Below are positions 9,620-60,529 of a stretch of 64,000 nucleotides of DNA, in pieces (position 1 is the stretch's first letter; each line of letters begins with the position of its first letter). The notes under the pieces were generated by a model that saw only the letters and a list, made by a program, of their open reading frames with translations, had not been told where the DNA came from and did no database searches. The DNA is from a bacterium (GTDB lineage Bacteria > Patescibacteriota > Microgenomatia > JAMCZE01). The DNA is taken from contig JAKBJL010000001.1 in the NCBI GenBank assembly GCA_021836035.1, forward strand, positions 223,765 to 287,764. Reading direction: 5' to 3'. The position numbers and the translations under genes were made by a program.

Positions 9620-9645
9620 TAACGAGGATGTCGTAGGTTCGAGTC

Positions 9646-31970: not shown

Positions 31971-32303
31971 GTGGTTGCGGGGACGGCGCGAAAAACAAAT
32001 ACCGCGCCGGTAGCAGCTCCCGCCTCCGCGCAAGATGGCAATATCCAGGTAATCAAAACAGTCTATACTTACAGTAAAGATTTTGTCCTTAACCAATTTA
32101 TAGTTAAAGCCGGGCAACCGGTCGGGTTTGAAGTTGAGGCTCAGGAAGACGTTCCCGGTTGCGTGGGCAGTATTACCGTCCCGGTCTTGACAGACAAGAT
32201 AGACTTAATTAAAAGAGAAAAGACCTCCGTTTTGGAACTCACACCGGTCAAAACGGGAAAATACCCATTACCCGTGCGATGGGAGTGCCCAGAGGAGGGA
32301 TAA
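31971..32303 (+). CDS. hypothetical protein, possibly cupredoxin-like; may start upstream with a non-ATG codon
   Basis: Beta-rich, with Cys in PGCVGS and WECPEEG. Lies upstream of the copper locus. Confidence 0.3.
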   Translation: MVAGTARKTNTAPVAAPASAQDGNIQVIKTVYTYSKDFVLNQFIVKAGQPVGFEVEAQEDVPGCVGSITVPVLTDKIDLIKREKTSVLELTPVKTGKYPLPVRWECPEEG

Positions 32304-32519: not shown

Positions 32520-34895
32520 ATGGCAAAACGGACCCAATTATCTTTATCGGGGATGCATTGCGCCTCCTGCGCGCTGCTAATAGAAAAATCGCTGCAGGAT
32601 ACCAAGGGGGTAAACTCCGCGCATGTTAATTTCGCGGCGGAGAAAGCCCTCGTGGATTTTAACGAAAGTGACGCCAGCGAGGAAGATTTAGTTGCCGCTG
32701 TAGAAAAAGCCGGTTATCAAGCTTCGGTCTACAATTCCCAAAATGCCGAGGCCGAAACACACCACCACCATGAAGAAATTGCCGGGCAGTTTCGTAAGTT
32801 CGTTGCCAGCCTGTTACTCTCTTTACCCATGGCCTATTTTATGCTGCTGGATTTCTTTCCCGGTCTGCCCGGCGGCGGAATTTTGCCTCCCTATGCCGGG
32901 CTTATTTCCCTGATTCTTGTGACACCGGTGCAGTTTATTATCGGCCGGCAATTTTACCAGGGCGCCTGGTCGGCTCTCAGAATGCGGACATTTAACATGG
33001 ATTCCCTGATTGCCATCGGAACCTCGGTAGCTTACTTCTATAGTTATCTGAGTTTTATCCGCTATTTTGTCGTAACGGGTTCATTGGTCGGGTTGAACGG
33101 AGCTAAAATTCCGGATTTATATTTTGAAACAGCGGCCTTCCTGGTTACTTTTGTTATTTTAGGGAAGTTTCTGGAAGCAAAAGCTAAAGGAAGAACCTCT
33201 GATGCCATAAAGAAGCTAATGGGACTGCAGGCGAAAACAGCAAGGGTTAAACGGCCGGGGGATAGGGGCGAGTGGCGGGAAAGGGATATCCCGATTGAGG
33301 AAGTAAAAACGGGGGACATCGTGATGGTCAGGCCCGGGGAAAAGATTCCCGTGGACGGTACTATTATTAAAGGCTCTTCGGCGGTGGATGAATCAATGGT
33401 TACGGGTGAAAGTTTGCCGGTAGAAAAACAGGCAAGCGATATGGTTATCGGCGGGACGATGAACAAAACCGGCAGCTTTGAATTTAAAGCAACCCGGGTC
33501 GGATCGGAAACCACACTGTCGCAGATAATTAAACTGGTGGAAGACGCCCAGGGCTCTAAGGCGCCGATCCAGGATTTTGCTGACCGGATTTCGGCCTACT
33601 TTGCTCCCGCCGTGATCGGAATTGCCCTGTTTTCTTTTGTAGTGTGGTACATTTTCTTAGGAGCTCCCCTGTCTTTTGCCCTGATGGCTTTCACGGCGGT
33701 GATCGTTATTGCCTGCCCCTGCGCTTTGGGTTTGGCAACGCCCACGGCCATCATGGTCGGGACCGGTAAGGGGGCGGAAAACGGCATTTTGGTTAAGGGA
33801 GGGGTACCGCTGGAAGCGGCCTGTAAAATAAACACCCTTGTTTTTGATAAAACGGGCACTTTAACCAAGGGAAAACCGGAAGTGACGGATATGATAGCGA
33901 CCGGGGGTAGGAAGTTAGGGACCGTTAACTTATTAAAAATCGCGGCGTCGTTAGAGAGGAAATCGGAACACCCCCTGGCGGAAGCTATTGCGGAAAAAGC
34001 AAAAAGTAGGGGATTAACCCTACGCGATACTAAAGAGTTTAAAGCCATACCGGGGCGCGGTGTGACCGGAAAAATCGGTAAGCAGGTTTACTATTTGGGG
34101 AACCGCAAACTAATCAGCGAAAACGCCGAATTAAAATTGGGAGATTTTGAAAAGCAATTAAAAATATGGGAAGACCATGGCAAGACGGCGATGATTTTAG
34201 CTGACAGGAAAAATATATTGGGGGCAATCGCGGTAGCGGATACGGTTAAAGAAACTTCGAAAGAGGCAGTAGCCGGTTTGCAGAAAATGGGTATTGAAAC
34301 CTGGATGATCACCGGGGATAACGTCCGGACCGCCAAGGCCATTGCCGACCAGGTAGGAATTACCCAAGTGTTAGCCGAAGTTCTCCCCGAAGACAAAGCA
34401 AACGAAGTCAAAAAACTACAGGAAACGGGGAAGAAGGTGGGGATGGTCGGTGACGGCCTTAACGATGCTCCGGCGCTCGCGCAGGCGGATCTGGGGATTG
34501 TTATGGGCAGCGGTACCGACGCGGCGATGGAAACCGGCGGGATAGTGATTATTAAAAACGACCTGCGGGATGTGGTTAACGCCATCGATTTATCAAAAGA
34601 AACCGTGGGAAAAATAAAACAAAATATGTTTTTCGCCCTTTTTTATAACGTAATCGGGATCCCCGTAGCCGCGAGAGCTTTTATGTTTGCCGGTTTGGTT
34701 TTAAAGCCGGAACTGGCAGGGTTAGCCATGGCTTTAAGCTCTATTTCGGTAGTAAGTAATTCTCTGCTGTTGCGCCGCTACGTCCCCGGACGAAAAAATT
34801 ACCTTTCCGCGATCGCGCCGTTTGCTATGGTTCTTGCTTTTACTTTCCTTTTTATCCAATTCGCCCGCTTTAGTTCCGGGGTGGCCGCAAAATAG
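32520..34895 (+). CDS. copA: copper-translocating P1B-type ATPase
   Basis: N-terminal [18 protein letters not shown], His-rich HHHHEE, CPC motif [28 protein letters not shown]. Confidence 0.9.
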
Positions 34896-34938: not shown

Positions 34939-35487
34939 ATGGCCGCGGTAATAATTATCGGCGCGGTTGCCGCCGGTGCTTATTTGCTCGGTAAGTCGGG
35001 GCGGACAATAACTTCCCTAGTCGCTCCCGATAAGGAAACAAATCGGCAGATTGCCAATACTCCGGTTCCTTCTCCCACGGGACAGATGCTGGGGGGTGAC
35101 CGCGATGAACACGGCTGCATCCCTTCGGCGGGTTATTCCTGGTGTGAAAGTAAACAAAAATGTTACCGCCCCTTTGAAGAAGGTTGCCCGGCGGCAAACG
35201 ATAGTGAATTAATAAGGCAGGCTTTATTTAAGAAGAATAATTGGCCGGAAAATAATAGTATCGCCGTGACAATTTCTTTTAATGACGGTCGGTATGCCAA
35301 GGGAACGGTTGCTTCTCAGGGCGGCGGCGGATATGTTTTTGCTGCCAAAGTTAACGGCGCCTGGCAGATTGTAACTGACGGTAACGGGGTAATTTCCTGC
35401 TCGGCTCTGACCGCTTTCCCCGACTATCCGACAACTTTAATCCCCGAGTGCTACGACCAATCTACCGGCAAAGAGGTCAAAAGATAA
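34939..35487 (+). CDS. secreted Cys-rich hypothetical protein
   Basis: TM/signal MAAVIIIGAVAAGAYLLG. Several Cys (CIPSAGYSWCESKQKCYRPFEEGCP). The track ORF start at 34822 overlaps copA. Confidence 0.4.
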   Translation: MAAVIIIGAVAAGAYLLGKSGRTITSLVAPDKETNRQIANTPVPSPTGQMLGGDRDEHGCIPSAGYSWCESKQKCYRPFEEGCPAANDSELIRQALFKKNNWPENNSIAVTISFNDGRYAKGTVASQGGGGYVFAAKVNGAWQIVTDGNGVISCSALTAFPDYPTTLIPECYDQSTGKEVKR

Positions 35488-35677
35488 ACCCGGCATTTAT
35501 TCTCTTTATCCATAATGTTTCCATGAATTGCTTGGTGGAAAGAAAACCGGAAGCGATCATGGACCGGACTACTAGGGGGCTGTCGAGCGGCTCCTCCCGG
35601 GTTTATCAGTAATTGACGAAACTATTACCCGGCTCATTCCCAACTCTAATACTTCTCTGTCATAAAAGAGTGGCTTT

Positions 35678-35992
35678 ATGCTGGGAATACTGCTGGTTGT
35701 TCTTATTATCCTTTGGATTCTGGGCTATATTACTATACCCGGAATCGTGATCCCCGCTTTTCCCCTGTTCTTTCTTAACGGCCATCCCGTTACGCTCTGG
35801 GACTTATTAGTTTTTGCCGTTATTGTTTGGGTGGCCGGCATTATGCCGAGTCCGCTGCGGGAAATTATCTGGGTGATTGTCATTTTATGGATTCTGGCTG
35901 CCTTGGGAATTTTAGCTTTTGCCGGCCTGTCGACAATTCTGATTCTAGCCGTGATTATCGGTTTGCTCCTTTCGCTTTTCCATGCCGCCTGA
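35678..35992 (+). CDS. small membrane protein with internally duplicated ILWILxxxGI segments
   Basis: Two similar hydrophobic halves. Confidence 0.4.
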   Translation: MLGILLVVLIILWILGYITIPGIVIPAFPLFFLNGHPVTLWDLLVFAVIVWVAGIMPSPLREIIWVIVILWILAALGILAFAGLSTILILAVIIGLLLSLFHAA

Positions 35993-36050: not shown

Positions 36051-36488
36051 ATGAAAAGATTCGGGCTATCGGCGTTGGTAATTGTATCCTTTCTCTTTTA
36101 CGCCGCCCACCGGCAGACGGAAGGCAGTAGCGCGCTGGGTGGCGTGGCATCCCAATTGCCGTTAACTACGCCGCCTGCCGGGCAAAACCCCACTCCGGTC
36201 GGCAGAACTTATAAAGACGGGACTTATACCGGCGACCCCGCAGACGCATACTATGGGAATGTACAGGTAAAAGCGACGGTTGCCGGCGGCAAAGTTACCG
36301 AAGTGCAGTTTTTAGATTATCCCCACGACCGACGGACTTCGCAGATGATTAATATGATGGCGACGCCATTATTGCGTTCGGAAGCGATTCAGACGCAGAC
36401 CGCCCAGGTAGATATTATTTCCGGCGCGACGCAGACCAGCCAAGCCTTTATCGCTTCTCTCGGGTCAGCCCTTAGCCAAGCACAATAA
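36051..36488 (+). CDS. extracytoplasmic FMN-binding domain protein (flavinylation target)
   Basis: A DIISGATQTS motif, the Dxx(S/T)GA(T/S) flavinylation site type. N-terminal signal/TM LSALVIVSFLFYAA. Confidence 0.7.
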   Translation: MKRFGLSALVIVSFLFYAAHRQTEGSSALGGVASQLPLTTPPAGQNPTPVGRTYKDGTYTGDPADAYYGNVQVKATVAGGKVTEVQFLDYPHDRRTSQMINMMATPLLRSEAIQTQTAQVDIISGATQTSQAFIASLGSALSQAQ

Positions 36489-36490
36489 AC

Positions 36491-37237
36491 ATGAAACAGA
36501 CCCGCGACCTTTGGAATATGCCGATTACCGTGGAAATCGTTGCCCCCCGCGTTCCGGCGCTTATTTGGGACCGGGTCTATGATTATTTCCGTTTTATTGA
36601 CCGCAAGTTCAGTACCTATAAGCGGGCTTCGGAGATCAGCTTAATCAACCGCGGCGAATTAGCTCCGGAACAATATAGTCCGGAAATGAAGGAAGTGCTG
36701 CAGTTGGCGGAGCGGACCCGGCGGGACACTCTGGGCTTTTTTGATATCCGGGAGGGGGAAAGACTGGATCCCCTGGGCTTAGTTAAGGGTTGGGCGGTCT
36801 TTCGGGCGGCTAAAACCCTGCGGGGCGAAGGTTTCTCCAATTTCTATATTGAAGCAGGCGGGGATATCGAAGCCTCCGGAGTGAATAACCGGGATAAGCC
36901 CTGGAAAATCGGGATCCGTAACCCCTTTAATAAAACGGAAATTGTTAAAGTGGTTTACCTAAAAGACCGGGGTATTGCTACTTCCGGCAATTATGAAAGG
37001 GGCCGGCATATCCGTAACCCCCTGAACGGCAAATGGGCCGAAGGGATTGCCAGTGTAACGGTTATCGGCCCGAATGTCTACGAGGCGGACCGTTTTGCCA
37101 CGGCCGCTTTTGCCATGGGCCCCCGGGGAATAAATTTTTTAGCGACCTGTCCCGCCTTGGCGGGCTATATGATCGAGAACAACGGCCGGGCGGTTTATAC
37201 CAGCAATTTCCAGAAATATTTAACGGAAGATGCGTGA
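36491..37237 (+). CDS. apbE: ApbE-family FAD:protein FMN transferase
   Basis: FSTYKRASEISLINRGE and GIRNPFNK...GIATSGNYERG are ApbE signatures. Confidence 0.65.
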   Translation: MKQTRDLWNMPITVEIVAPRVPALIWDRVYDYFRFIDRKFSTYKRASEISLINRGELAPEQYSPEMKEVLQLAERTRRDTLGFFDIREGERLDPLGLVKGWAVFRAAKTLRGEGFSNFYIEAGGDIEASGVNNRDKPWKIGIRNPFNKTEIVKVVYLKDRGIATSGNYERGRHIRNPLNGKWAEGIASVTVIGPNVYEADRFATAAFAMGPRGINFLATCPALAGYMIENNGRAVYTSNFQKYLTEDA

Positions 37238-38744
37238 ATTTCTCGATCGGTTTTTAAATCGCACCACCACGTACCGGCTGATGCTTTACTACCTGATTTT
37301 TTTGGTCGGGACGGCGCTGCTTCTCTCGGCACTGGGAATTTTGCCGTTCAGCGCGGCAAGCCTGCTTTTTTCTGCGCTTTTCCTGGTCACAGTCGGCTGG
37401 ATTACCAACCTGGTTTTTGCCTGGGTGTTTGGGGCGGTCACCAATGTGGAATCGGTTTATATTACCGCTTTGATCCTGGCGCTAATTATTTCGCCGGTGA
37501 ACAGTATCTCCGGACTGGCTTTTTTGTTTTGGGCGGCGGTTTTAGCCATGGCGGGAAAATTTATTTTAGCCAGGCAGAAAAAACATCTGTTTAACCCCGC
37601 GGCGCTGGCGGTTTTTCTTACCGCGGTAATTTTGGGAGAATCTGCGACCTGGTGGGTAGGAAGTACTCCGATGCTTATTCCGGTGCTGGCCGGAGGAATA
37701 TTCATCGTACGGAAAGTTCAGCGGGAGCAATTGGTATTGACCTTTATCGTTACCGTCCTGCTGGTGAGTCTGGCTTTTAACTTTTCCTCCGGTCCGGAAC
37801 TGTTGCGACTTTTAACGGCCATATTTTTGGATACACCGATCTTGTTTTTTGCTTTTGTCATGCTGACCGAACCCCTGACCATGCCGCCGGTTGCTAATCT
37901 GCGATTGCTTTATGCCGCCCTGGTGGGTTTTCTTTTTGTTCCCCAGGTACATTTCGGCGGTTTTTATACAACCCCCGAAGCGGCGCTTTTAATCGGCAAT
38001 CTATTTTCCTATCTTGTCGGTTCTCAGAAACGCTTGGTTTTATCTCTGGAACAAAAAATACCGACGGGGACGGACACCTGGGACTTTCTTTTTTCCAAAA
38101 ACGAAGATTTTGGCTATCAGCCGGGGCAATATTTGGAATGGACGCTGCCGGGGGAACAGGCGGATAGCCGGGGGAACCGGCGCTACTTTACTTTGGCTTC
38201 TTCGCCGACCGAAAGCCATTTCCGCCTGGGAGTAAAAACTTATCAGCCGGCCAGCACTTTTAAACAAAAAATGCTCGCGATGCGGACAGGCGATACGATC
38301 ACCGCTTCGCAATTGGCGGGAGATTTTACCCTGCCCGGGGATCAAAAGGAGAAACTGGTGTTTATTGCCGGAGGAATAGGGATTACCCCCTTTAGGAGCA
38401 TGATTAAATATTTGTTGGACAGCGGGCAAAAAAGGCCCATCGTGTTGCTGTATGCCAATAAGACCGCCGACGAGATTTTGTACCGGGAGGTTTTTAGCGA
38501 AGCGGAAAGTACGGGAATAAAAACGGTTTATACCCTCACGGATACCAACGGGTTGCCGGACAACTGGAACGGTAGGACCGGGAGAATTAATGAGCAAATG
38601 ATCAAAGAGGAAGTTCCGGATTACCGGGAGCGCCTCTTTTATCTTTCCGGCCCCCGTTTTATGGTCACCGGTTTTGAGGAAGTCTTAAAGCGAATGGGAG
38701 TATCACGGGGCAAAATCAAAGTCGATTATTTCCCCGGGTTTTAG
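37230..38744 (+). CDS. polytopic membrane protein fused to a ferredoxin-NADP-reductase-like FAD/NAD(P)-binding domain
   Basis: About 7 N-terminal TM helices. FAD motif RRYFTLASSP and NAD(P) motif GGIGITPFRSM. Confidence 0.6.
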   Translation: MREFLDRFLNRTTTYRLMLYYLIFLVGTALLLSALGILPFSAASLLFSALFLVTVGWITNLVFAWVFGAVTNVESVYITALILALIISPVNSISGLAFLFWAAVLAMAGKFILARQKKHLFNPAALAVFLTAVILGESATWWVGSTPMLIPVLAGGIFIVRKVQREQLVLTFIVTVLLVSLAFNFSSGPELLRLLTAIFLDTPILFFAFVMLTEPLTMPPVANLRLLYAALVGFLFVPQVHFGGFYTTPEAALLIGNLFSYLVGSQKRLVLSLEQKIPTGTDTWDFLFSKNEDFGYQPGQYLEWTLPGEQADSRGNRRYFTLASSPTESHFRLGVKTYQPASTFKQKMLAMRTGDTITASQLAGDFTLPGDQKEKLVFIAGGIGITPFRSMIKYLLDSGQKRPIVLLYANKTADEILYREVFSEAESTGIKTVYTLTDTNGLPDNWNGRTGRINEQMIKEEVPDYRERLFYLSGPRFMVTGFEEVLKRMGVSRGKIKVDYFPGF

Positions 38745-38823
38745 ATAAACTCCATCGTTTATAGAAGAATTTACCCCCGAGCTAAGCTCGGGGGTAGTTT
38801 TTCAGGCTGCGGAAGTGATTTTT

Positions 38824-39282
38824 TTACTGCGTCGGGGCAGGGGTCAACGTGGGTTGTCCGGAAGTTCCCGGGCGACCTAAAAACCCCTGCGGATTTAATT
38901 GTATATCCTGCGCGGTTATCGTTCCGTCGGAATTAACAGTGCCGAAGACAGCGATTTGCTTGCCGTTTTGTAAATCGCTTTTAGCGGCGCTGGTTGACTG
39001 GGTAATAACGGTATTTCCGGAGAGAATCACAATACGGCTGCTGCCGTCGGGCATTTTAATTGTCAGGTTATTGTTGCTGAGGCTAAGAATCTCTCCCCGG
39101 ACTGCGCGGTTATTGTTGTTGCCGTTCGGGCCGAAGCGCCGTCCATCGTTGTTGCCGTTCGGGCCGTTCAACCGTTGAACAAGGGCGCCGCGCTGCGACT
39201 GTTGGTACTGCATCCCGCCGTAAAAAGCGGCAGCGCCGACGGTAACGGCAATAATGATGGTGAGAACCCAAGGATTTTTCAT
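38824..39282 (-). CDS. secreted hypothetical protein
   Basis: N-terminal TM, an Asn/Gly-rich linker and a beta-rich C-terminal domain. Confidence 0.4.
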   Translation of the reverse strand: MKNPWVLTIIIAVTVGAAAFYGGMQYQQSQRGALVQRLNGPNGNNDGRRFGPNGNNNNRAVRGEILSLSNNNLTIKMPDGSSRIVILSGNTVITQSTSAAKSDLQNGKQIAVFGTVNSDGTITAQDIQLNPQGFLGRPGTSGQPTLTPAPTQ

Positions 39283-40211
39283 TAGTTTTTCACCTCCCTT
39301 CTTCGGGAGGGGCTTTTCCTTTCCCCGGCTAAAAAGGCGGGTAAAGGCAGCCTGGCCCAGATTTGTTGCCTTTTAATTACCAAATAAAAAGCGATGAAGG
39401 CGTAAAGAACACCGGCAGCGATATCAAAGAAATAATGTTCGCCGAGGTAAATGATGGAGAACCAGACCCCGGCAACGTAAGGGAGAAGAAGCAAGCCCCA
39501 GGCGCGAAAGCGGTTGGTAAGGAAAAGCAGCGTCAAAAACGGATAAGCGGCATGGAGCGAAGGCACGGCGGCAACCAGATTGGCCCCGAAAAAACTGTAA
39601 ATCGTCGGCAGACTCATGGCCTGGGGAAAATTAACGGAAACCTTGCTGGCGATATTTAAAATGGGTGGGATGAAGCCTTGTTGCGCTGCCATCCAAGGCG
39701 GGACGGTCGGGAAAAGCAAGTAAGTAACGAAAGCCATATAAGACAATATGAGAATTCCCAAGTAATATTCTTTAAATATTTCCTTGCGGGAAAGCCAAAG
39801 AATAAAACCGACAAGAAGGAAAAAAACGAAATGGGTTTCGTAAAGCAGAGTAGCTAAGTAGTCGTACCATTGGAAATGGTTGCCGGCAAAAAGCAGCTTT
39901 TGTAAAGTGACGGTGGGAACAGTGCCGCCGAAGAACAGTTCGTCAAATTTAATCATAGGTAGGGCGTGGGCTTGGGTCGTTAGTTTCGGGACAAAATCGC
40001 GGAGCGACTCATAACCCAGAAAGAGGGCGATGGGAGAAATCCAATCCTGAAGAAACTGTCGGAAGCGGCCCAGGATCAGGGCGGCAACCAGGGCAGCGGC
40101 AAAAAATTGGTCCGGGGAAAACCACATCCGGTGCCAGAGAAGGTAGGCGCTCAGAATTGCCAGATAAAGAACGGAAAGAACGCAGACAACTTTATAACTT
40201 AAATTACTCAT
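39282..40211 (-). CDS. PAP2-like polytopic membrane protein
   Basis: PSLHAAYP and GEHYFFD motifs. Confidence 0.4.
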   Translation of the reverse strand: MSNLSYKVVCVLSVLYLAILSAYLLWHRMWFSPDQFFAAALVAALILGRFRQFLQDWISPIALFLGYESLRDFVPKLTTQAHALPMIKFDELFFGGTVPTVTLQKLLFAGNHFQWYDYLATLLYETHFVFFLLVGFILWLSRKEIFKEYYLGILILSYMAFVTYLLFPTVPPWMAAQQGFIPPILNIASKVSVNFPQAMSLPTIYSFFGANLVAAVPSLHAAYPFLTLLFLTNRFRAWGLLLLPYVAGVWFSIIYLGEHYFFDIAAGVLYAFIAFYLVIKRQQIWARLPLPAFLAGERKSPSRRREVKN

Positions 40212-41442
40212 ATCTCAAAGCTTCAATTGGACTTAAGTTGGCGGCTTTGCGGGCAGGATACCAGCCGAAAACAATACCGATAGCAGCGGAAACGCCGAAG
40301 GCAGTAATGATCGACGATAGGGAAATAGTAAACGGCAAACTGATGACCTTGGCGATAATATAGGATAGGGTGGTGCCCAAAATCATTCCCAGTACTCCGC
40401 CGCCGAAAGTTAAGATGATGGACTCAATTAGAAATTGCGCCACGATAAGGTTTGCTTGTGCCCCCAGGGCTTTGCGCAAACCTATTTCGCGGGTCCGCTC
40501 AATTACCGTCACCAACATGATATTCATAATCCCGATGCCGCCGACCAAAAGGGAAATAGCGGCAATGCCCGACAAGAGGGAGGTAAAGGTACCGGTTACC
40601 TGGGAAGCGGCGCCTAAAATATCCGCTTGGGAAAAAATGGAGAAGTCTGCCTGGGTCGGATCGCTGAGATGGTGGCGGGCTAAGAGAAAATAACCGATTT
40701 GATTTTGTGCCGTCGTCATGTCGTTCGCGTCCTTTGCCTGGACGGCAATGGAAGATATATAGTCGACGCCGAATAAAAGTTTTTGGGCCGAGGTTAAGGG
40801 AACCATAATCAGGTCATCCTGATTGCCAAAGCCGGTTCCTCCCTTGGATACTGTTTCCCCGATAATACGGAAAGCGATTTTATTGATGCGGACGGTTTGC
40901 CCTACCGGATCGGTACCATCACCGAACAGGTCGCTCGCGGTCGTCGGCCCGATGACCGCCACTTTGCTCATCGAATCCACATTATCGGTACTAATAAAAT
41001 TGCCTTCCTGCAGGGAAATATTATGGACCGTTTCGTAGGCCGGTGTTACTCCGATAATTTGGGTATTGGTATTATTGGCTCCGGTAGTGACTTGCGCCCG
41101 CCGCTGCAATTCCGGGGAGACCGCGGCAACGGTAGTAATCTGCGGCGAACTGGCGATGGCTTTAGCATCTTCATAAGTTAGGCTGGTTGCCCCGCCGAAT
41201 CCGGTATTAACTCCGCCGGACCGTTGCGAACCGGGGATGACAGTTAAGAGGTTGGAACCCAAGGATTGAATAGACGATTGCACGGACATCTGGCCGGATT
41301 GCCCAAGAGAAATCAGGGCAATAACGGCGCCGATACCGATAACAATTCCCAGCGCCGCCAGGAAGGTGCGCATTTTGTTAAGGCTTAAAGCCTCCAGCGC
41401 CGATAAAAAAAGCTCACCTATGTCCATAGAATTTATGCCCAT
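40204..41442 (-). CDS. ABC transporter permease, FtsX/MacB family
   Basis: N-terminal TM, a large periplasmic domain and a C-terminal FtsX-like 3-TM bundle. Confidence 0.8.
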   Translation of the reverse strand: MGINSMDIGELFLSALEALSLNKMRTFLAALGIVIGIGAVIALISLGQSGQMSVQSSIQSLGSNLLTVIPGSQRSGGVNTGFGGATSLTYEDAKAIASSPQITTVAAVSPELQRRAQVTTGANNTNTQIIGVTPAYETVHNISLQEGNFISTDNVDSMSKVAVIGPTTASDLFGDGTDPVGQTVRINKIAFRIIGETVSKGGTGFGNQDDLIMVPLTSAQKLLFGVDYISSIAVQAKDANDMTTAQNQIGYFLLARHHLSDPTQADFSIFSQADILGAASQVTGTFTSLLSGIAAISLLVGGIGIMNIMLVTVIERTREIGLRKALGAQANLIVAQFLIESIILTFGGGVLGMILGTTLSYIIAKVISLPFTISLSSIITAFGVSAAIGIVFGWYPARKAANLSPIEALRYE

Positions 41443-42121
41443 TTAATTGGTCGCTTGCCAATTTGCCGTCTTTCAACTGGATGACTCTTTTAGTATAAGC
41501 GGCAATATCCGGTTCATGGGTAATCATGATAATAGTATGACCCTTTTTATTTAAATCGGTAAATATTTTCATAATTTCTCCGGCCTGAACACTGGAAATA
41601 TTTCCGGTAGGTTCGTCGGCTAAAATAATTGCCGGGTCCATGGCTAGAGCCCGGGCAATAGCGACCCGCTGCATTTGACCGCCGGAGAGCTGACTGGACG
41701 TATGATCCATGCGGTCAGCCAGTCCTACGATAGTTAGCATTTCCTTAGCCCGGCGTTCCCTTTCTGCCTTGGGAATGCCGGCGTAAATCATAGGCAGCAT
41801 GACGTTTTTCAAGGCGGTAGTCCTTGGTAAGAGGTTAAAAGCCTGGAAAACAAAACCGATTTTTTTGTTGCGCAATTCTGCCAATTTATTTTCCGGCAGC
41901 TTATTGACCTCCGTGTCTTCAATATAGTAGGTTCCGGAGGTAGGCTTATCCAGGGCGCCGATGATATGCATAAGGGTGGATTTACCCGAACCGCTTGGCC
42001 CCATAATGGCCACGAATTCACCTTTATTTACGGAGAAGGAAACATCCTCCAGGGCGACGGTATTTACCGAATCGTTGGCATAAATTTTTCCGAGATGGGA
42101 AGCTTGGATAATGGTTGCCAT
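41414..42121 (-). CDS. ABC transporter ATP-binding protein (MacB/LolD-like)
   Basis: Walker A GPSGSGKSTL, signature LSGGQMQRVAIARAL, Walker B ILADEPTG. Confidence 0.85.
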   Translation of the reverse strand: MATIIQASHLGKIYANDSVNTVALEDVSFSVNKGEFVAIMGPSGSGKSTLMHIIGALDKPTSGTYYIEDTEVNKLPENKLAELRNKKIGFVFQAFNLLPRTTALKNVMLPMIYAGIPKAERERRAKEMLTIVGLADRMDHTSSQLSGGQMQRVAIARALAMDPAIILADEPTGNISSVQAGEIMKIFTDLNKKGHTIIMITHEPDIAAYTKRVIQLKDGKLASDQLNGHKFYGHR

Positions 42122-42130
42122 ATTTTTTCA

Positions 42131-43423
42131 TTAACCGCCACCGCCCCTCCGGAACACCGCTCCGCCGCCTCCGCCGAAACGGAAAGCGCCGAAGGGGGAA
42201 GAGGCAGATTGGCTGGCGGGAGTGGTTAGCCCGCCGATAATTACGGTATCACCCTCAGAAAGCCCGGAAGTAATTTCGGTTTGGGTATCAGAAGCCAGCC
42301 CCGTTTCCACCGCGACTGTCTGTACCTGGCCGTTTTTTAGAATCCGGACTGTCGATTGCCCGTTACGTGTCTGGATGGCAGCCGTCGGTACCAGGAGAAC
42401 ATTATCTTTAGTCTGCACGATAATGTTGGCGTTAACAGACATGTTGGGCAAAACATTATCGGGAGAGGTATCGAATTGAATGACCGCCGGATAGTTAGTC
42501 ACATTGGAAGTAACGAGGCCGCTGCGGTTGATGCCGGTGACCGTTCCGGTGTAAGTCATTCCCGGAAGAGCATCTAGGGTTAAAGTCGCTTTTTGTCCTT
42601 CTTTTACTTTGGTAACGTCCACTTCCGAAAGATTAAAGGTGGCGGTCGGGGCGTTGTTGGTAACGATGTCTCCAACGGTAGTTGCCGAAGGGACATTGCT
42701 GCTGTTGGTTTGGCTGGTAATTGCCATGCCCGGGGTTAAGACTAAATCAGCAACCACTCCGGAGCCCGGGGCGGTAACTATCGGCGAGGAACCTTGGTAA
42801 TTTAGCCAGGCATTAGAAAGAGCGGCTTGGGCTTGGCCGATAACATTGGCTTGGTTTTTATAAGAAGCTTCTGCGGCCAGCCAGGTAGCATTTTCCTCAA
42901 TATAAATCGGGTCGCTGGTAGAAAGATCCCGTTCTACCGCGTCGTTCATAAACTTCTGATTAGCGACGAATTCCTGGTTTTGTAAGGTCCAAAGCTGTGT
43001 CTGGGCAGAAGCTAAATTGTTTTGGGCGGCAAGGACGGCGGACCAGGCCGAAGCGGTCCGTTGCTGGCCGGTTTGGTCCAGTGAGAGTTCTAGAATATTT
43101 TGCCCGGCGGAAACCGTATCGCCGTTTTTCACAAAAATTTGTTTAATCTGGCCGCTGCCCTGGGTGGTAATCGGCAAGCGGTTGGCTGTAGCCATTTGGC
43201 CAGATTCGGAAACGGAGGAGACGATCGTTCCGCGGGTAACGGTCGCGGTCTGGTATTGGGTAGCGGCGGTTCGGGCACTCCCCAATTTAGTATAAAGTAC
43301 CCAACCGACGAAAAGAATAACGGCAAGAGCAGCAAGTTTTACCTTCAGATCTTTTTTCCAGAACCAGTAAAAGATATTTTGCACTCTGTTCATAGAGTTT
43401 TTACTATTAATATAGGAAAACAA
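42131..43423 (-). CDS. periplasmic adaptor/membrane fusion protein (HlyD/MacA family)
   Basis: N-terminal TM and a Gln/Ala-rich coiled-coil hairpin. Beta-barrel C-terminal region with a Gly-rich tail. Confidence 0.7.
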   Translation of the reverse strand: MFSYINSKNSMNRVQNIFYWFWKKDLKVKLAALAVILFVGWVLYTKLGSARTAATQYQTATVTRGTIVSSVSESGQMATANRLPITTQGSGQIKQIFVKNGDTVSAGQNILELSLDQTGQQRTASAWSAVLAAQNNLASAQTQLWTLQNQEFVANQKFMNDAVERDLSTSDPIYIEENATWLAAEASYKNQANVIGQAQAALSNAWLNYQGSSPIVTAPGSGVVADLVLTPGMAITSQTNSSNVPSATTVGDIVTNNAPTATFNLSEVDVTKVKEGQKATLTLDALPGMTYTGTVTGINRSGLVTSNVTNYPAVIQFDTSPDNVLPNMSVNANIIVQTKDNVLLVPTAAIQTRNGQSTVRILKNGQVQTVAVETGLASDTQTEITSGLSEGDTVIIGGLTTPASQSASSPFGAFRFGGGGGAVFRRGGGG

Positions 43424-43462
43424 TAATGACTTAAACTGAAATTCTGCTGAAAAGGGGCAGTA

Positions 43463-44500
43463 TTAAGATCCGGCGCGTATTAACGGCAGGGAAACAGAGA
43501 TTGTTGTTCCTTCTCCCGGTTGGCTTTGCACGCTGATAGTACCGTGATGACTTTCTGTAATTTTCTTGGCGATCGCTAAACCCAAACCGTACCCCCCGGC
43601 CCCGGATTTTTGCCGGGCAGAATCCGCCCGGTAGAAACGATCGAAAATATAAGGCAGGTCTTCTTTATTGATACCGATACCCTGATCTTTAACGGTAATA
43701 ACAAGCAGATGATCGATTTCCCGGGCAGAAATCCGGACCACACTTTTCTCCGGACTGTATTTTACCGCATTGTCCAGCAATATTACCAGCAAATTTATCA
43801 GCGCGTCTTTATTACCCGAGATTTTCCGATCGGCCAGTTCTTTGCGGAGCGTCACTCGTTTTTCCGAAGCTATGGGGGCAATTTTTTTTACCGCTTCATT
43901 CGCAATTGCTGATAAAGAAAGAATTTCAAATTGCATTTTATTAACCGTTTTTTGGTATCGGGTGAGTTGCAACAGGCTTTCGGTTAGAGATTGCAGCTTA
44001 TTGACTTCACCGAGGTTTTGGGAAAGCAGGGTTTTAACTTCGGCTATTCTTAAATTTTTATCCCGCAGGTTAACTTCTATCGCCGCTTTTAGTGAGGTAA
44101 GAGGGGTTTTTAATTCGTGGGAAGCATCGCTGATAAAACGGTTTTGTTCCTCCATCATTTCCTGAATAGGTTTTAGAGTTCTGCCCGCCAGAAAATAACC
44201 CATGCCTGCGGAGAATAAGAGAATACCACCGTTGATAGCAAGCAGCGTCAGAAGGAGCCGCCCTTCTGTTTCGTTAACTAATTCCGGATCCGGAGGCGGC
44301 AGCAAATTTTGCCGCGGGGGTAAGGGTGAGCCCCGCTGATTTTCCAGATAGCGGCGTTCAATCCGGAAACGCTGTGCGCGGGCAAATCTCTCCAGTTCCG
44401 TTGCTTCCACCCGGTAAATTGTCAGACTAAAGACGGTGCTGACCAGCATGATCATCAGAAGGTACCAGGCAGTAAGTTTTAACCGCGCGGAATTAAACAT
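43463..44500 (-). CDS. sensor histidine kinase
   Basis: H-box SHELKTPLTSL, N-box LLDNAVKYS, G2 box GGYGLGLAIAKK. Confidence 0.85.
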   Translation of the reverse strand: MFNSARLKLTAWYLLMIMLVSTVFSLTIYRVEATELERFARAQRFRIERRYLENQRGSPLPPRQNLLPPPDPELVNETEGRLLLTLLAINGGILLFSAGMGYFLAGRTLKPIQEMMEEQNRFISDASHELKTPLTSLKAAIEVNLRDKNLRIAEVKTLLSQNLGEVNKLQSLTESLLQLTRYQKTVNKMQFEILSLSAIANEAVKKIAPIASEKRVTLRKELADRKISGNKDALINLLVILLDNAVKYSPEKSVVRISAREIDHLLVITVKDQGIGINKEDLPYIFDRFYRADSARQKSGAGGYGLGLAIAKKITESHHGTISVQSQPGEGTTISVSLPLIRAGS

Positions 44501-45176
44501 AATTTTCTCCCAGCCGATAACCGAAACCCCTGACGGTATGGATTAGAGGTTTCTGGCCTTTAAAGGGCAAATCAATTTTCCGGCGCAGATTGCGGATATA
44601 GACTTCGACAGTATTAGGCAGAATATCTGCGTCATAATTCCAGACATGGTTAATAATCTGATCTTTGGAAAGGATTTTACCGGCATGACGCAGGAGAAAC
44701 TCCAGAAGCGAGAATTCCCGGGCGGAAAGGGAAATATTCCGGCCATTTCTTTCTACCCGGAAAGAACCGGTATCCAGTTTTAAGTCTTCAGCTGCCAGAA
44801 CTGTTCCCAGCATATTTTGGGGACGGCGGGAAAGCGCCCGGACCCGGGCTAACAATTCTTCAAAAGAAAAAGGCTTAGTAAGATAATCGTCTGCTCCGGC
44901 ATCCAGTCCGGAAACTTTATCTTCAATTTGTCCTTTAGCGGTTAAAATTAAGACTGGGGTATGAATTTGTTTTTGGCGTAATTCCCGACAGATCGTCAGC
45001 CCATCCATACCCGGCAGCATTAAATCTAAAATGAGCAGATCATATTCTTCGCCGCAGGCTAAATCAAAACCGTCATCGCCGGAGAAGGCAATATCGACCG
45101 CGTAATGTTCCTGCTCCAGCCCCTTTTTAATGGAGTTAGCGATCAGATGCTCGTCTTCTACCACCAGGATACGCAT
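44493..45176 (-). CDS. OmpR-family response regulator
   Basis: Receiver ILVVEDE...DLMLPGMDG and a winged-helix C-terminal domain. Confidence 0.85.
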   Translation of the reverse strand: MRILVVEDEHLIANSIKKGLEQEHYAVDIAFSGDDGFDLACGEEYDLLILDLMLPGMDGLTICRELRQKQIHTPVLILTAKGQIEDKVSGLDAGADDYLTKPFSFEELLARVRALSRRPQNMLGTVLAAEDLKLDTGSFRVERNGRNISLSAREFSLLEFLLRHAGKILSKDQIINHVWNYDADILPNTVEVYIRNLRRKIDLPFKGQKPLIHTVRGFGYRLGENYV

Positions 45177-49701: not shown

Positions 49702-51003
49702 ATGCACTCCGGGAATTTAGATATTGAAGGCATAACTAAAATTGAGGGCGCGGCGGGACTTAAAGTAACGGTTGCTGACGATAAAGTCACCGATTTGAAA
49801 TTTATCATCGCCGATTACCGGCGCTTTTATACCGAAGCGGTTAAGGGGAAGTCTTTAAACGCGATTCCCCCCTTTCTTTCGCGGATTTGCGGAACCTGTT
49901 CGATAGCTCACCTTTTTGCTTCCATCGAGGCGATCGAGCGTTCCCAGGACACTCCCGTTTCCGAACAAACCATGCTTTTACGGCGCCTGGTTTATGACAG
50001 TTTTATGATCCGTGACCATGCACTGCATCTTTATTTCTTTGTTCTCCCTGATGTTTTAGGGCTGGACTCAATTCTCGAGATTCCGGACAATCCTAAAGAT
50101 CTGGGCCATATTTTGCTCCACGATTCTTTCGAAATTAAAAAAGTAGGCACGGATTTAGCAACTGCCATTGCCGGGGCGGCGATACACGCGCCCTATCCGA
50201 CTATCGGCGGCTTTTTGAAATTGCCGGATGACAAGATCTTCCCGGATTTCAGCAGGAAACTGGAGGATCTGCGACCGCGGGTTTTGCGCGCCATTAAATT
50301 TTTTGCCGATTGGAAAGAAGAATTAATCCGCAATTCCGATTATCTTTGTTTGCAGCATCTTAACCGCTATGATTTTATCCAGGGAGAGATCGTTAATTCC
50401 AATGGCAAAAGGGTCGCCGAGGAGGGATTCCGGGATTTCTTGCGGACTGTCGTTATACCTTATTCCCAATCGGAAGGCTACATCTTTTCCGACACCTACG
50501 AGGATTATTTAGTCGGCGCTTTAGCCCGCATGAATCTGAATAAAGCGCGTTTAAATCCCCGGACCGAAAAGGATACCGCGCCGTATTTAAATTTTTTCCC
50601 TTCTAATAATATCTACCATAATAACCTGGCTCAGGCGATCGAAGTTTTACAATGTATCGATGACGCGATCGAAATAATGAAAAATATCCATTTAACTTTC
50701 GAGAGGCCCCCCTTCAAATTGCCAAAAGCCGGGGTTGGCGTCGGGGTTGTCGAGGCGCCGCGGGGGACTTTATATCACAAAATTGAGGTTAATAATGAAG
50801 GCCAGGTCGCCAATTACGATGTTATCGTTCCCACTTCGCAAAATCAAATTAGTATCGGCAATGACCTGAAAAAATATTTTAATGAGAACCTGGACAAAGA
50901 CGAAAATTTATTAAAACACGAGGCGGAAAAAATTATTCGGGCTTACGATCCCTGCATGTCCTGCGCGACCAACTTTCTGAAGATTGACTGGAGCCGCAAA
51001 TAA
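49702..51003 (+). CDS. [NiFe]-hydrogenase large subunit
   Basis: N-terminal RICGTCS (RxCGxC) and C-terminal DPCMSCA (DPCxxC) Ni-Fe ligand motifs. Confidence 0.9.
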   Translation: MHSGNLDIEGITKIEGAAGLKVTVADDKVTDLKFIIADYRRFYTEAVKGKSLNAIPPFLSRICGTCSIAHLFASIEAIERSQDTPVSEQTMLLRRLVYDSFMIRDHALHLYFFVLPDVLGLDSILEIPDNPKDLGHILLHDSFEIKKVGTDLATAIAGAAIHAPYPTIGGFLKLPDDKIFPDFSRKLEDLRPRVLRAIKFFADWKEELIRNSDYLCLQHLNRYDFIQGEIVNSNGKRVAEEGFRDFLRTVVIPYSQSEGYIFSDTYEDYLVGALARMNLNKARLNPRTEKDTAPYLNFFPSNNIYHNNLAQAIEVLQCIDDAIEIMKNIHLTFERPPFKLPKAGVGVGVVEAPRGTLYHKIEVNNEGQVANYDVIVPTSQNQISIGNDLKKYFNENLDKDENLLKHEAEKIIRAYDPCMSCATNFLKIDWSRK

Positions 51004-53353: not shown

Positions 53354-54205
53354 TTAAGAATATTTTTTCAGCAGTTCGGAAATATCGCGGCGGAGGGGAG
53401 GTTCGTAGACCAGGGGTTTGGGGACAATTTGGGAAATCTGGGATTCAGCGGTCGGGCGGTCTTCCTCATAAAGAATCCCCAGAGGAATTTGTTTGGGACC
53501 CCACTCCCAAGCTTTAGCAAGAGCGGCCATTTTGTCGTGGGGATTATATTTTTCGTCTAAATGGTAGATATTTTCCTGGTAAAACTGATGGGTATATTCT
53601 TTATTAAAAGTAACGCAGGGCTGAAGGATATCGATAATAGCCAGACCTTTGTGGTTGTTAGCTTTAATTATAAGCTGTGACAGCCCGGGAATATCCCCCG
53701 CGTAGCCGCGAGCGGCAAAGGTAGCTCCGGCAGTAATAGCCAGCGCCAGTGGCCGGAAAGGCTCATCGGGATTGCCAAACGGCGTGGATTTGGATTTAAA
53801 ACCGCGGGGGGAAACGGGGGAAGTTTGGCCGGTAGTTAAACCATAAACACCATTGTCGTGTAGCAGAATAGTCAGGTCATGGTTCCTCCGGCAGGAGTGG
53901 ATTAGGTGGTTTCCTCCTTCCCCCAGGCAGTCGCCGTCGCCGGTAATGACAAAAACATTTAAGTCGGTGTTAGCTAGTTTTATGCCGGTGGCCACGGGTA
54001 TTGCCCGCCCGTGCAGCCCCTCAAAGGAAGTAATTTTCGTAAAATTTAACAGATGCCCATGGCAGCCGATGCCGGCAACAAGCGCGGTATTGGCATTGTC
54101 CCAGCCGGCCTGAGTAGCGGCGTTTTTTAACGCCGCCCAAATGGCAAAGTTCCCGCATCCGGGACACCAGGTTGGAAAACAGGAGGTGTTTAAATTTTCA
54201 ACCAT
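53354..54205 (-). CDS. 2-oxoacid:ferredoxin oxidoreductase beta (TPP-binding) subunit
   Basis: CPGCGNF and the TPP motif GDGD. Confidence 0.85.
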   Translation of the reverse strand: MVENLNTSCFPTWCPGCGNFAIWAALKNAATQAGWDNANTALVAGIGCHGHLLNFTKITSFEGLHGRAIPVATGIKLANTDLNVFVITGDGDCLGEGGNHLIHSCRRNHDLTILLHDNGVYGLTTGQTSPVSPRGFKSKSTPFGNPDEPFRPLALAITAGATFAARGYAGDIPGLSQLIIKANNHKGLAIIDILQPCVTFNKEYTHQFYQENIYHLDEKYNPHDKMAALAKAWEWGPKQIPLGILYEEDRPTAESQISQIVPKPLVYEPPLRRDISELLKKYS

Positions 54206-55907
54206 TTTGGACTTTATTTATTATTTCCTCTGGGTATATTGGTCTACCGTCGTATTTTAAAAAATTATCCGTGATTTCTAAACCGGTTTTTTCTCTGATT
54301 AATCCGCCCATCTGGGCAGTAAAATTATTTTCGATATTGATAAGGTGCTTAGCCTTACTTAGTTGTTCTTTGACGGTAGTTGCCGGGAAAGGGCTGGCGG
54401 AAGTGATGTGTAGATAATTAACACCATCCAGAACTTTTAAAGCCTCAAGGATGCTTCCCTTGTTACTGCCCCAGGAAATAATAGTCGTTTCCGCTTCTTT
54501 GGGACCATAAAGAATAGGCGAAAAAAGATCGCGTTTACGGCAGGTTTCCAATTTCTGCATCCGTTTATCCATCTGCTTTCGGCGCATCTCCGCTTCCTCG
54601 GTACTGAATCCGGTTTCATCGTGTTCATCGGAGTTGGCGAGAATAAAAGTATCGTGTCCGGGAATTGCCCGCAGGGAAATGCCGTTTTCCGTTAGGGCAT
54701 AACGCTGATAATTTTCCCTCACTCCTCCGCTAAATTCGCCCCGGTCCAGTTTATAACCGGAAATATCAAAAGGCGGAAAACTTTGATCGTCCTCACAAAT
54801 GTTTTTATCCACCAAAACGACCACCGGTGTTTGGTAGATGTCGGCTAAATTAAAAGCTTCCATAGTAAATCGGAAGGCTTCTTCGGGATCTCCCGGCGCT
54901 AAGATAATTTTAGGAAAATTGCCCTGGTGGGCATGGAGAACAAAACGTAAGTCGCCCTGTTCGCTCCAGGTGGGAAGGCCGGTTGCCGGTCCGGGCCGCA
55001 TTCCTTCGATAATGACCAGCGGCGTTTCCGTCATACCCGCCAAGCCGTAACCTTCCGCCATCAAACAAAAACCGCCGCCGGAGGTTGCGACCAAGGACCG
55101 CGCCCCCGCAAAAGAAGCGCCGATGGCCATATTAATACCGGCGATTTCGTCCTCCGGCTGTTTAAATATGAACCGGTATTTTTGCTGCCAGGGGGTCAGG
55201 TTGTGCATAATGTTGGAAATCGGGGTCATAGGATAAATCGCGGCGAATTGCATACCGGCGGCAATGGCTCCCATAGCGATCGCGTCGTTGCCGTTGACGA
55301 TAATCTGCGGAGCAATTTCGGGACGGGGGGTAAGAATTTGCAGGGCAAATTTCCCAAATTGATCATGGGCAAAGTTAAAACCTTTTTCCGCAGCGGTTTG
55401 ATTTTGGGTAACAACGATCGGTTTTTTGTCCGCAAATTCTTCGGCCAAAAGTTGCTGTAGAATTTCCAGTTTGCCGCCGAGGAGTGCTAAGGCAGCGCCT
55501 AAAGCGACGGTGTTAGTCAGCAGGTCGTTGCCGATTTCCCGGGCGGTTTTTAATAAAGGAACGGGGCAGAGATGAAGGTTCGTCCCCAAGCCTTCGGTGT
55601 TCATACTGCTGCCGGCATCAAAAAGGAGAAAGCCGTTTTCCGGCAATTCTGCCGCGTGTCGTTTTACCGTTTCCTGGTCTAAAGCCACGAGGAAGTTGGT
55701 TTGTTGGGTCGGCGCGGCAACTTTGCCCGCAGCGACAGTAACGCTCATGACATTATGACCGCCGCGGACCAGCGATGGATACTCAGTGTGATTAAAAATG
55801 CCGTAACCCGAGCGGGTGGCGACTTTGGCCAAAATCAGCCCGGCGGATTTAATTCCCTGACCGGCCTGGCCTCCGATTTTAAAAGTAAAAAGTGCGGAAT
55901 GGGACAT
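54198..55907 (-). CDS. 2-oxoacid:ferredoxin oxidoreductase alpha subunit (gamma-alpha fusion)
   Basis: N-terminal gamma-like domain IGGQAGQGIKSAG followed by a POR/KOR alpha domain. It overlaps the beta gene by 8 nt. Confidence 0.85.
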   Translation of the reverse strand: MSHSALFTFKIGGQAGQGIKSAGLILAKVATRSGYGIFNHTEYPSLVRGGHNVMSVTVAAGKVAAPTQQTNFLVALDQETVKRHAAELPENGFLLFDAGSSMNTEGLGTNLHLCPVPLLKTAREIGNDLLTNTVALGAALALLGGKLEILQQLLAEEFADKKPIVVTQNQTAAEKGFNFAHDQFGKFALQILTPRPEIAPQIIVNGNDAIAMGAIAAGMQFAAIYPMTPISNIMHNLTPWQQKYRFIFKQPEDEIAGINMAIGASFAGARSLVATSGGGFCLMAEGYGLAGMTETPLVIIEGMRPGPATGLPTWSEQGDLRFVLHAHQGNFPKIILAPGDPEEAFRFTMEAFNLADIYQTPVVVLVDKNICEDDQSFPPFDISGYKLDRGEFSGGVRENYQRYALTENGISLRAIPGHDTFILANSDEHDETGFSTEEAEMRRKQMDKRMQKLETCRKRDLFSPILYGPKEAETTIISWGSNKGSILEALKVLDGVNYLHITSASPFPATTVKEQLSKAKHLINIENNFTAQMGGLIREKTGLEITDNFLKYDGRPIYPEEIINKVQNG

Positions 55908-56604: not shown

Positions 56605-56606
56605 AG

Positions 56607-60523: not shown

Positions 60524-60529
60524 CGAGAT

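Follow-up and report, generated by a model that had tools for sequence, protein, structure and literature searches.

Can three small genes of a patescibacterium encode a route by which electrons leave the cytoplasm, and which cofactors would carry them? The question is raised by a 64,000-nucleotide stretch of DNA (hereafter called the window; contig JAKBJL010000001.1, from a member of the Microgenomatia), in which genes for a flavin mononucleotide (FMN)-binding protein, an ApbE flavin transferase and a membrane-bound, reductase-like protein follow each other. A first-pass annotation, made from the sequence without database searches, had read these genes as a module for NADH-driven electron export to an extracytoplasmic flavoprotein, and had seen in a neighboring copper ATPase gene a hint of Cu(II) reduction. 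On balance, we consider it probable that the three genes encode a two-subunit transmembrane electron conduit, free of haem and of iron-sulfur clusters, together with a dedicated flavin transferase, and that they form an NQR/RNF-like system. This class was already described computationally in 2021; the locus adds one member to it and is not new as a kind. All coordinates are those of the window, and residues of the FMN-binding protein are counted from the ATG at 36051.

Gene order and distribution of the flavin operon

The three open reading frames (ORFs) are all on the plus strand, with coordinates exactly as in the first-pass annotation. The ORF list and Pfam searches place an FMN_bind protein of 145 residues (PF04205) at 36051-36488 and a compact ApbE of 248 residues (PF02424) at 36491-37237; a fusion protein of 504 residues follows at 37230-38744. 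Only 2 bases separate the first two genes, and the ApbE and fusion genes overlap by 8 bases. The contig is also publicly available in the metagenome-assembled genome GCA_027371575.1. For the first gene, gene callers pick an ATG at 35982, which gives a protein of 168 residues; its relatives begin at the counterpart of 36051, with the N-terminus 'MKKF.LS'. Just 3' of the fusion stop codon is a strong hairpin that resembles a bidirectional intrinsic terminator (38771-38797, not assigned to a strand). It is G+C-rich, with 8 G-C pairs in a 12-bp stem and T-runs on both strands, and also serves a convergent DUF5666 gene. The three genes appear to be translationally coupled and to end at this terminator.

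The conservation of this arrangement was surveyed by scanning one genome per GTDB species for relatives of the fusion protein. At least 598 species carry one, most of which belong to the Patescibacteria or the Chloroflexota, and all locus counts in this text refer to the best 80 of these at least 598. These 80 loci come from Patescibacteria (43, from many classes), Chloroflexota (18) and Actinomycetota (2), with 17 not placed. Besides the Patescibacteria, Chloroflexota rather than Actinobacteria are thus the main group, and their carriers include the isolates Dictyobacter aurantiacus and Ktedonospora formicarum. An FMN_bind gene was detected in 74 of the 80 loci and an ApbE gene in 69. The order FMN_bind-ApbE-fusion, on one strand and with adjacent or overlapping genes, is kept in 62 of them. 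Because so many related loci share it, the order is not a matter of chance, and the expectation that the three genes are conserved together was borne out. An extra 8 loci have FMN_bind immediately 5' of the fusion gene with no apbE between them. Two FMN_bind genes precede the fusion gene in four loci (L013, L016, L035 and L043).

The architecture is identical to that of the NQR/RNF-like system, in which a single protein with an N-terminal PF03116 and a C-terminal PF00175 domain is encoded beside an FMN-binding gene and apbE (PMC8238504). In the window, both domains occur in one protein (29.5 bits for PF03116 and 68.4 bits for PF00175), and the fold was confirmed. The class definition looks for an ApbE or FMN-binding gene within five genes; here both are immediately upstream of the fusion gene. 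The taxonomic ranges overlap as well (candidate phyla radiation, Ktedonobacteria). Méheust et al. 2021 reported 127 such clusters, with a pipeline that demanded a predicted signal peptide in the cluster (PMC8238504), and this demand, which would remove many of the present loci, may be the reason why at least 598 species stand against that number. The class appears to be several-fold larger than published.

Domains of the three proteins

The first-pass annotation described the third gene as a polytopic membrane domain joined to a ferredoxin reductase (FNR)-like domain for NAD(P)H and flavin adenine dinucleotide (FAD). Pfam agrees, with matches to PF03116 and PF00175. The membrane domain comprises residues 1-265 (37230-38024, plus strand). 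Its match to PF03116 (NQR2_RnfD_RnfE) is just above the cut-off of 27.7 bits, and E. coli RsxD matches the fusion ORF by plain phmmer (E 4e-7). A membrane-domain profile built from 16 homologues gave a single match in the PDB, RnfD of A. vinelandii (E 0.004), and hhalign aligned the same profile with RsxD at 92% probability (fusion residues 151-259 to RsxD 227-334). The membrane domain was modelled on its own because a full-length Foldseek search gave FNR-type matches only. The AlphaFold2 model of residues 1-270 has a pLDDT of 84.8, and each of its top 15 Foldseek matches in the PDB is a chain of RnfD or NqrB (TM-score 0.59-0.73, query-normalised); urea transporters with E-values near 1 come next. 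The annotation had left the choice between a haem-binding domain with bis-His ligands and an NqrB/RnfD-like fold to a later check, and Pfam, Foldseek and phmmer agree on the latter. Its membrane domain stands, while its count of about 7 transmembrane helices does not: the AlphaFold2 model has about 10, and a plain hydropathy scan finds 6.

Loops rich in Lys and Arg are found at residues 108-122 and 160-166, and K266/R267 precede the soluble domain. This fits a topology, read from the positive-inside rule, in which the N-terminus and the FNR domain would be cytoplasmic and the loop 136-145 outside, the N-in/C-in arrangement of RnfD. The same region differs from RnfD. In RsxD, the NPFNPA helix is separated from the one that opens with WQWVN by a loop of about 75 residues, and the sequence DGISQAT187PLD in this loop holds the flavinylated Thr, T187 (numbering from the literature on Vibrio RnfD). 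The corresponding helices of the fusion are linked by only ten residues, G-E-S-A-T-W-W-V-G-S, and the roughly 75 RsxD residues including the flavinylation motif have no counterpart when the sequences are aligned by eye. The absence of this Thr agrees with a feature reported by Huang et al. 2024, who suggested that the covalent FMN of the partner protein fills the vacated RnfD-like pocket (PMC10979944).

The ten-residue link contains S-A-[S/T]-W-W (residues 138-142), which is conserved, with N or D at the third position in 3 of 40 homologues. By eye it lines up with 'MTSW' of RsxD and not with the flavinylation motif. S-A-T-W-W was considered as a vestigial RnfD flavinylation site and rejected; the T187 loop is absent and the third position varies to N or D. 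Two other candidate flavinylation targets in the fusion were set aside: RRYFTLAS is the ordinary FAD-binding motif of FNR proteins, and T13, invariant and situated in the N-terminal helix, does not fit the ApbE motif. Among the acidic residues of the membrane domain, E74, E214 (in LTEP, which corresponds to LTDP of RsxD) and E250 are invariant. The only conserved His residues are H119 and H241, both in loop elements and on opposite faces.

The FNR-type domain makes up residues 266-504 and, with the stop codon, occupies 38025-38744 (plus strand). It matches PF00175 (NAD_binding_1) with an E-value of 1e-18 and PF00970 (FAD_binding_6) weakly. The motifs RRYFTLAS (317-324) and GGIGITPF (381-388) are present as the first-pass annotation had quoted them, along with YLSGP and an aromatic C-terminal residue. 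Across 40 homologues that share about 55% identity, the residues of the FAD and NAD(P)H motifs do not vary. Sequence matches in the PDB are FAD domains of NqrF and cytochrome b5 reductase (E about 1e-11). The same proteins are found by Foldseek with TM-scores of 0.7-0.8 (target-normalised), and the reductase domains of flavohaemoglobins also resemble this domain in sequence and fold. Pfam found neither a 2Fe-2S domain nor a PF01794 haem domain in the fusion protein. The FNR domain is predicted to be cytoplasmic.

The FMN_bind protein matches PF04205 with an E-value of 5e-9 (37 bits, where the cut-off is 22). It starts with MKR; 16 hydrophobic residues come next, and a stalk rich in Pro and Thr leads from them to a compact domain of about 88 residues at the C-terminus. 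The hydrophobic stretch FGLSALVIVSFLFYAA (residues 4-19; 36060-36107, plus strand) is a putative signal-anchor, the pattern of which is conserved: M(K/R)(K/R)F.LS.FVV..F..YA recurs at the N-terminus of the relatives, and those with longer N-terminal tails have tails rich in Lys and Arg. By the positive-inside rule this indicates an N-in/C-out anchor with the FMN domain outside. The stretch has no clear cleavage site as judged from its sequence. The outside location proposed by the first-pass annotation is retained as a prediction, but the protein seems better described as membrane-anchored than as secreted. Because the sequence of the anchor is conserved, it may pack against the membrane subunit.

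ApbE modifies the consensus D-x-x-[ST]-[GS]-A-[TS]. The FMN_bind protein has DIISGAT at residues 121-127 (36411-36431, plus strand), which fits this consensus, and Thr127 is the predicted site of the FMN phosphoester. The annotation had noticed both this motif and the ApbE gene next to it. The nearest solved structure, PDB 8p2a ('FMN-binding domain-containing protein', E 1.5e-14), has 'SGATYTS' aligned with SGAT, and the C-terminal consensus VD.(V/I)SGA(T/S).TS..F is found across the FMN_bind proteins of the related loci. The protein is predicted to be a carrier of electrons on covalent FMN, in the role of NqrC or RnfG.

The transferase itself matches PF02424 with an E-value of 5e-41 (141.5 bits) and aligns with the ApbE structures from E. 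coli, Listeria and Thermotoga. Compared to E. coli ApbE, about 53 residues are absent (E. coli positions 108-160). Nevertheless, K99-G100-W101, T164-S165-G166, H173, D200 and T204 are invariant in 31 members of the family and align to conserved positions of the solved enzymes; their presumed roles are FAD binding, catalytic base and Mg2+ binding. Since these residues are invariant despite the shortened fold, the enzyme looks active, and it is probably cytoplasmic. Its 248 residues are the longest ORF that the frame allows, the maximal ORF begins at the catalytic core, and a hydropathy scan found no hydrophobic segment. Canonical ApbE is an exported lipoprotein with an N-terminal lipoprotein signal peptide (PMC12052999). 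Such a signal is absent from the ApbE of the window and from 65 of 69 related loci, in which the stop-to-stop ORF offers no start codon or hydrophobic stretch 5' of the conserved N-terminus. The top 120 database homologues are 235-269 residues long. The view of ApbE as an exported partner of a secreted protein does not hold for this family; the first-pass annotation had overlooked the lack of a signal peptide, which makes the simple picture harder to maintain. The occurrence throughout the cluster class of a compact ApbE of about 250 residues that is predicted to have no signal peptide is a new observation. A longer, mis-called ApbE that hides a signal peptide was ruled out by the stop-to-stop analysis of the 69 loci. 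An FMN_bind-ApbE fusion, or stop-codon readthrough that carries ApbE outside, was also ruled out; the two genes are in different frames and are separate ORFs in the relatives. In two loci (L073 and L050) the ApbE gene is located elsewhere in the locus, and there too the protein has no signal peptide.

A possible electron route and its alternatives

In the route that we propose, the FNR-type domain of the fusion protein, with FAD as its cofactor, would oxidise cytoplasmic NAD(P)H. The electrons would traverse the membrane via a flavin, probably non-covalent, in the RnfD/NqrB-like domain and would then reach the FMN of the anchored FMN_bind protein at the outer face; ApbE is predicted to attach this FMN to Thr127 as a phosphoester. 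The covalent FMN would hand the electrons to an external acceptor encoded outside the cluster, so that the net outcome would be the regeneration of NAD(P)+ and a supply of reducing power outside the cell. The cofactor content, the direction of the electrons, the topology, the identity of the acceptor, the site of flavinylation and any ion coupling are what we infer here. The class has been predicted in the literature to export electrons along this route, from NAD(P)H to a flavoprotein outside the cytoplasm (PMC8238504, PMC10979944), and the first-pass annotation had arrived at the same reading.

The trio resembles Na+-NQR (NqrA-F) and Rnf (RnfABCDGE) in its NqrB/RnfD fold, in a carrier of the FMN_bind family (NqrC/RnfG), in an NqrF-like FAD/NADH domain and in ApbE-dependent FMN. 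Packed into two polypeptides that have no iron-sulfur centers, it would be the equivalent of RnfC, RnfD and RnfG, the NADH-side half of Rnf, or of NqrB and NqrC with the FAD part of NqrF. However, the full six-subunit set of the large complexes is not present within the 64 kb. Homologues of NqrA, D and E or of RnfA, B, C and E are absent from the window; searches with E. coli RsxA, B, C and G by phmmer found nothing there, and only RsxD matches, to the fusion. Furthermore, the NqrF-like part has no 2Fe-2S domain, and the loss of the Thr187 loop removes the site at which the NqrB/RnfD subunit itself carries covalent FMN. The FMN domain, unlike NqrC, is of a small type, with 8p2a as its nearest PDB entry. 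Electron flow is predicted to be one-way and not semicircular, and any ion pumping is hypothetical.

Other known systems share parts of this logic. In the MsrQ-like/NOX-like and PepSY-like flavinylation systems (Méheust et al. 2021), as in eukaryotic or bacterial NOX/FRE ferric reductases, a cytoplasmic FNR-type domain for NAD(P)H is likewise fused to a membrane conduit, which supplies a carrier or acceptor outside the cytoplasm. Their conduits, however, hold two b-type haems between His pairs, whereas the conduit of the window has an RnfD/NqrB fold for which only flavins are predicted. Flavin-based extracellular electron transfer in Listeria monocytogenes (Ndh2, EetA/B, FmnB, PplA) also uses an anchored or lipoprotein FMN_bind carrier and an ApbE-type enzyme in a cell that has no outer membrane, and the FMN_bind protein has weak NCBIfam similarity to PplA. 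Listeria uses a type II NADH dehydrogenase and a quinone route, and its FmnB is an exported lipoprotein fed with secreted FAD (PMC9973259). In the window, by contrast, the conduit protein itself contains the NAD(P)H-oxidising domain, nothing points to a quinone step, and ApbE lacks an export signal. The ApbE of Klebsiella pneumoniae, whose target is a soluble fumarate reductase, and the ApbE domains within the fumarate reductases of trypanosomatids are likewise signal-less and cytoplasmic (PMC12052999). Their substrates are cytoplasmic, whereas the substrate here is anchored and predicted to face outward; the stretch of about 53 residues that the window ApbE has lost from the canonical fold also sets it apart from these enzymes.

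Several points weigh against the proposed route. A literature search found no experimental paper on the NQR/RNF-like class. All-against-all clustering of neighboring ORFs revealed no conserved acceptor gene, as no fourth gene occurs in more than about a quarter of the loci. In addition, ApbE seems to be without an export signal across the family, although its substrate is predicted to be outside, and this leaves the site and timing of flavinylation unaccounted for. The puzzle is not treated in either paper on the class (PMC8238504, PMC10979944). One way to solve it, which we regard as unlikely, is that FMN is attached inside the cell. The domain would then be exported later, or it would be kept at the inner face as a bridge between the FNR and RnfD-like domains, as RnfC feeds RnfD, with the membrane domain directly reducing a membrane or external acceptor. 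The invariant catalytic residues of ApbE, its inability to bear a signal peptide in the window and in 65 of the 69 loci, and the narrow length range of its homologues (235-269 residues) all favor this explanation. The cytoplasmic ApbEs with cytoplasmic targets in K. pneumoniae and the trypanosomatids offer a documented precedent, and cytoplasmic ApbEs are known only for such targets (PMC12052999). On the other hand, the conserved anchor of the FMN_bind protein, its Lys/Arg-rich N-terminal flank and its Pro/Ser/Thr-rich stalk favor a location outside. To our knowledge, there is no precedent for the export of an already flavinylated chain. The flavin pocket of RnfD and NqrB is at the outer face of the membrane. 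Huang et al. 2024 built an AlphaFold-multimer model of the Ktedonobacter racemifer complex, and in it the flavin pocket of the RnfD-like domain receives the flavinylation site (PMC10979944), which also speaks for the outer face. Put as a statement about the class as a whole, namely that its compact, signal-less ApbE flavinylates in the cytoplasm and that the FMN domain is exported in modified form or works on the inner face, the idea seems to us possible, even if we lean away from it.

The remaining explanations concern the purpose or the cofactors of the conduit. That the trio is a minimal ion pump, in which NqrB/C/F-like parts couple NAD(P)H oxidation to the export of Na+ or H+, is improbable. 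NqrB and RnfD are the proposed ion path of NQR and RNF, and the complete RnfD/NqrB fold is kept here with E74, E214 and E250 invariant; these acidic residues, however, could equally bind flavin. Moreover, NqrD/E and RnfA/E, which bear the intramembrane iron-sulfur center and drive the conformational cycle, are found neither in the window nor in the published cluster definition. A slightly weaker case can be made for copper handling, in which the module, acting together with CopA and a cupredoxin-like protein, would turn extracellular Cu(II) into Cu(I). copA shares the strand of the operon, 1.15 kb upstream of it, and the interval contains no strong terminator; the response regulator encoded downstream scores best against a heavy-metal response-regulator family, although below the cut-off (241.7 versus 279.2 bits). 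Yet CopA occurs within 10 kb of the module in only 5 of the 80 loci, on either strand and 1.3-7 kb away. The cupredoxin assignment is below the Pfam cut-off, and neither this ORF nor the two ORFs between copA and the operon have homologues in the related loci, which makes a role in copper handling quite doubtful. Least credible, to a degree that we would nearly disregard it, is a haem enzyme of the NOX/ferric-reductase type that passes electrons over two b-type haems to O2 or Fe(III). The layout, a membrane domain followed by an FNR-like one, is similar, and weak PF08030 and DUOX matches were obtained, in the dehydrogenase domain only. However, NOX/FRD proteins have a six-helix membrane domain with two His pairs (PF01794), and the fusion has no PF01794, an RnfD/NqrB fold, and only H119 and H241 conserved, in loops and not in paired helices. 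Pfam and the fold results rule out a NOX/ferric-reductase membrane domain.

If the electron export route is correct, it may matter beyond this genome. Patescibacteria are generally seen as fermenters without respiratory chains. Because the operon would need no haem, quinone or iron-sulfur cluster and is carried by at least 598 species, it could be a common outlet for reducing equivalents; it could also reduce something in the envelope, the surroundings or a host. If flavinylation is cytoplasmic, the current view of ApbE as an enzyme that acts on exported electron carriers, outside the cytoplasm, would no longer hold. Flavin-auxotrophic, transporter-poor Patescibacteria could then build an all-flavin transmembrane wire, with neither haem nor iron-sulfur clusters, without secreting FAD. 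The question of the flavinylation site is directly testable with three small genes.

Neighboring genes and other features of the window

Upstream of the flavin operon, copA (32520-34895) encodes a P1B-type copper-translocating P-type ATPase according to NCBIfam. Between its end at 34895 and 36051 we found no hairpin comparable in strength to the terminator behind the fusion gene. As the two units share a strand and no strong terminator separates them, copA may be co-transcribed with the flavin operon in this genome. The first-pass annotation had also pointed to a cupredoxin-like ORF, at 31971-32303, but it reaches only 21 bits against the Pfam cut-off of 27. A conserved link between the flavin module and copper is not supported, nor is the hint of Cu(II) reduction, because CopA is a neighbor in so few loci. 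The interval 34939-35992 between copA and the operon holds two ORFs that belong to no detectable family. One, of 182 residues, has an N-terminal hydrophobic segment; the other, of 104 residues, has three such segments, and the FMN_bind gene in the longer form chosen by gene callers overlaps its end.

Downstream, a convergent operon on the minus strand (38824-45176) encodes a response regulator, a histidine kinase, a MacA-like adaptor, an ATP-binding cassette (ABC) ATPase, a MacB/FtsX permease, a PAP2 phosphatase and the DUF5666 protein. About 9-10 of the 80 loci have this gene set, whole or in part, next to the flavin module; in some of them (e.g. L009, L005) the set and the module share a strand and are co-linear. 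Counted by family, an OmpR/HisKA two-component system is near the module in 21 loci, within 3 kb in 13 of these, and an ECF-type sigma factor in 13. For the MacB-type ABC exporter, 10 loci have the adaptor and 9 the permease; DUF5666 is present in 7-8, and PAP2 and DedA-like proteins in 6 each. The recurrent neighbors of the module are, by family assignment, predicted regulators and envelope functions, which is new compared to the literature. The recurrence of the envelope gene set suggests shared regulation or a context of envelope stress.

Elsewhere in the window there are several genes for redox metabolism. The large subunit of a [NiFe] hydrogenase is encoded at 49702-51003; the nearest NCBIfam models are sulfhydrogenase-like and score below their cut-offs. 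A soluble FNR-like protein of 262 residues with FAD_binding_6 and NAD_binding_1 domains (55912-56697, minus strand) is adjoined by genes for the alpha subunit of a 2-oxoacid:acceptor oxidoreductase (54198-55907) and an acetate-CoA ligase (56607-58478). Together with the hydrogenase gene they form a fermentative redox gene cluster. Genes for a type IV pilus assembly ATPase (PilB/GspE-like) and a platform protein (PilC/GspF-like) follow at 58847-61597; type IV pilus genes are often reported for Patescibacteria. The gene content of the window, including the hydrogenase, the 2-oxoacid:acceptor oxidoreductase, the acetate-CoA ligase and the pilus genes, fits the fermentative organism assumed in the first-pass annotation, and it is consistent with a cell that would gain from an extra electron sink.

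A full-length Rfam match to a group I intron (59 bits, E 2e-12) is located at 9433-9612 on the plus strand, even though no rRNA or tRNA gene is present in the window. The match overlaps the end of an ORF of 108 residues with an HNH-like 'CANCHREIH' sequence and no Pfam match. The intron region is followed by a gene on the minus strand for a large serine recombinase with Resolvase and Recombinase domains, and the whole segment (9147-11337) is probably a mobile element or prophage remnant. Further on, at about 16-24 kb of the window, the G+C content drops to 0.35-0.40.

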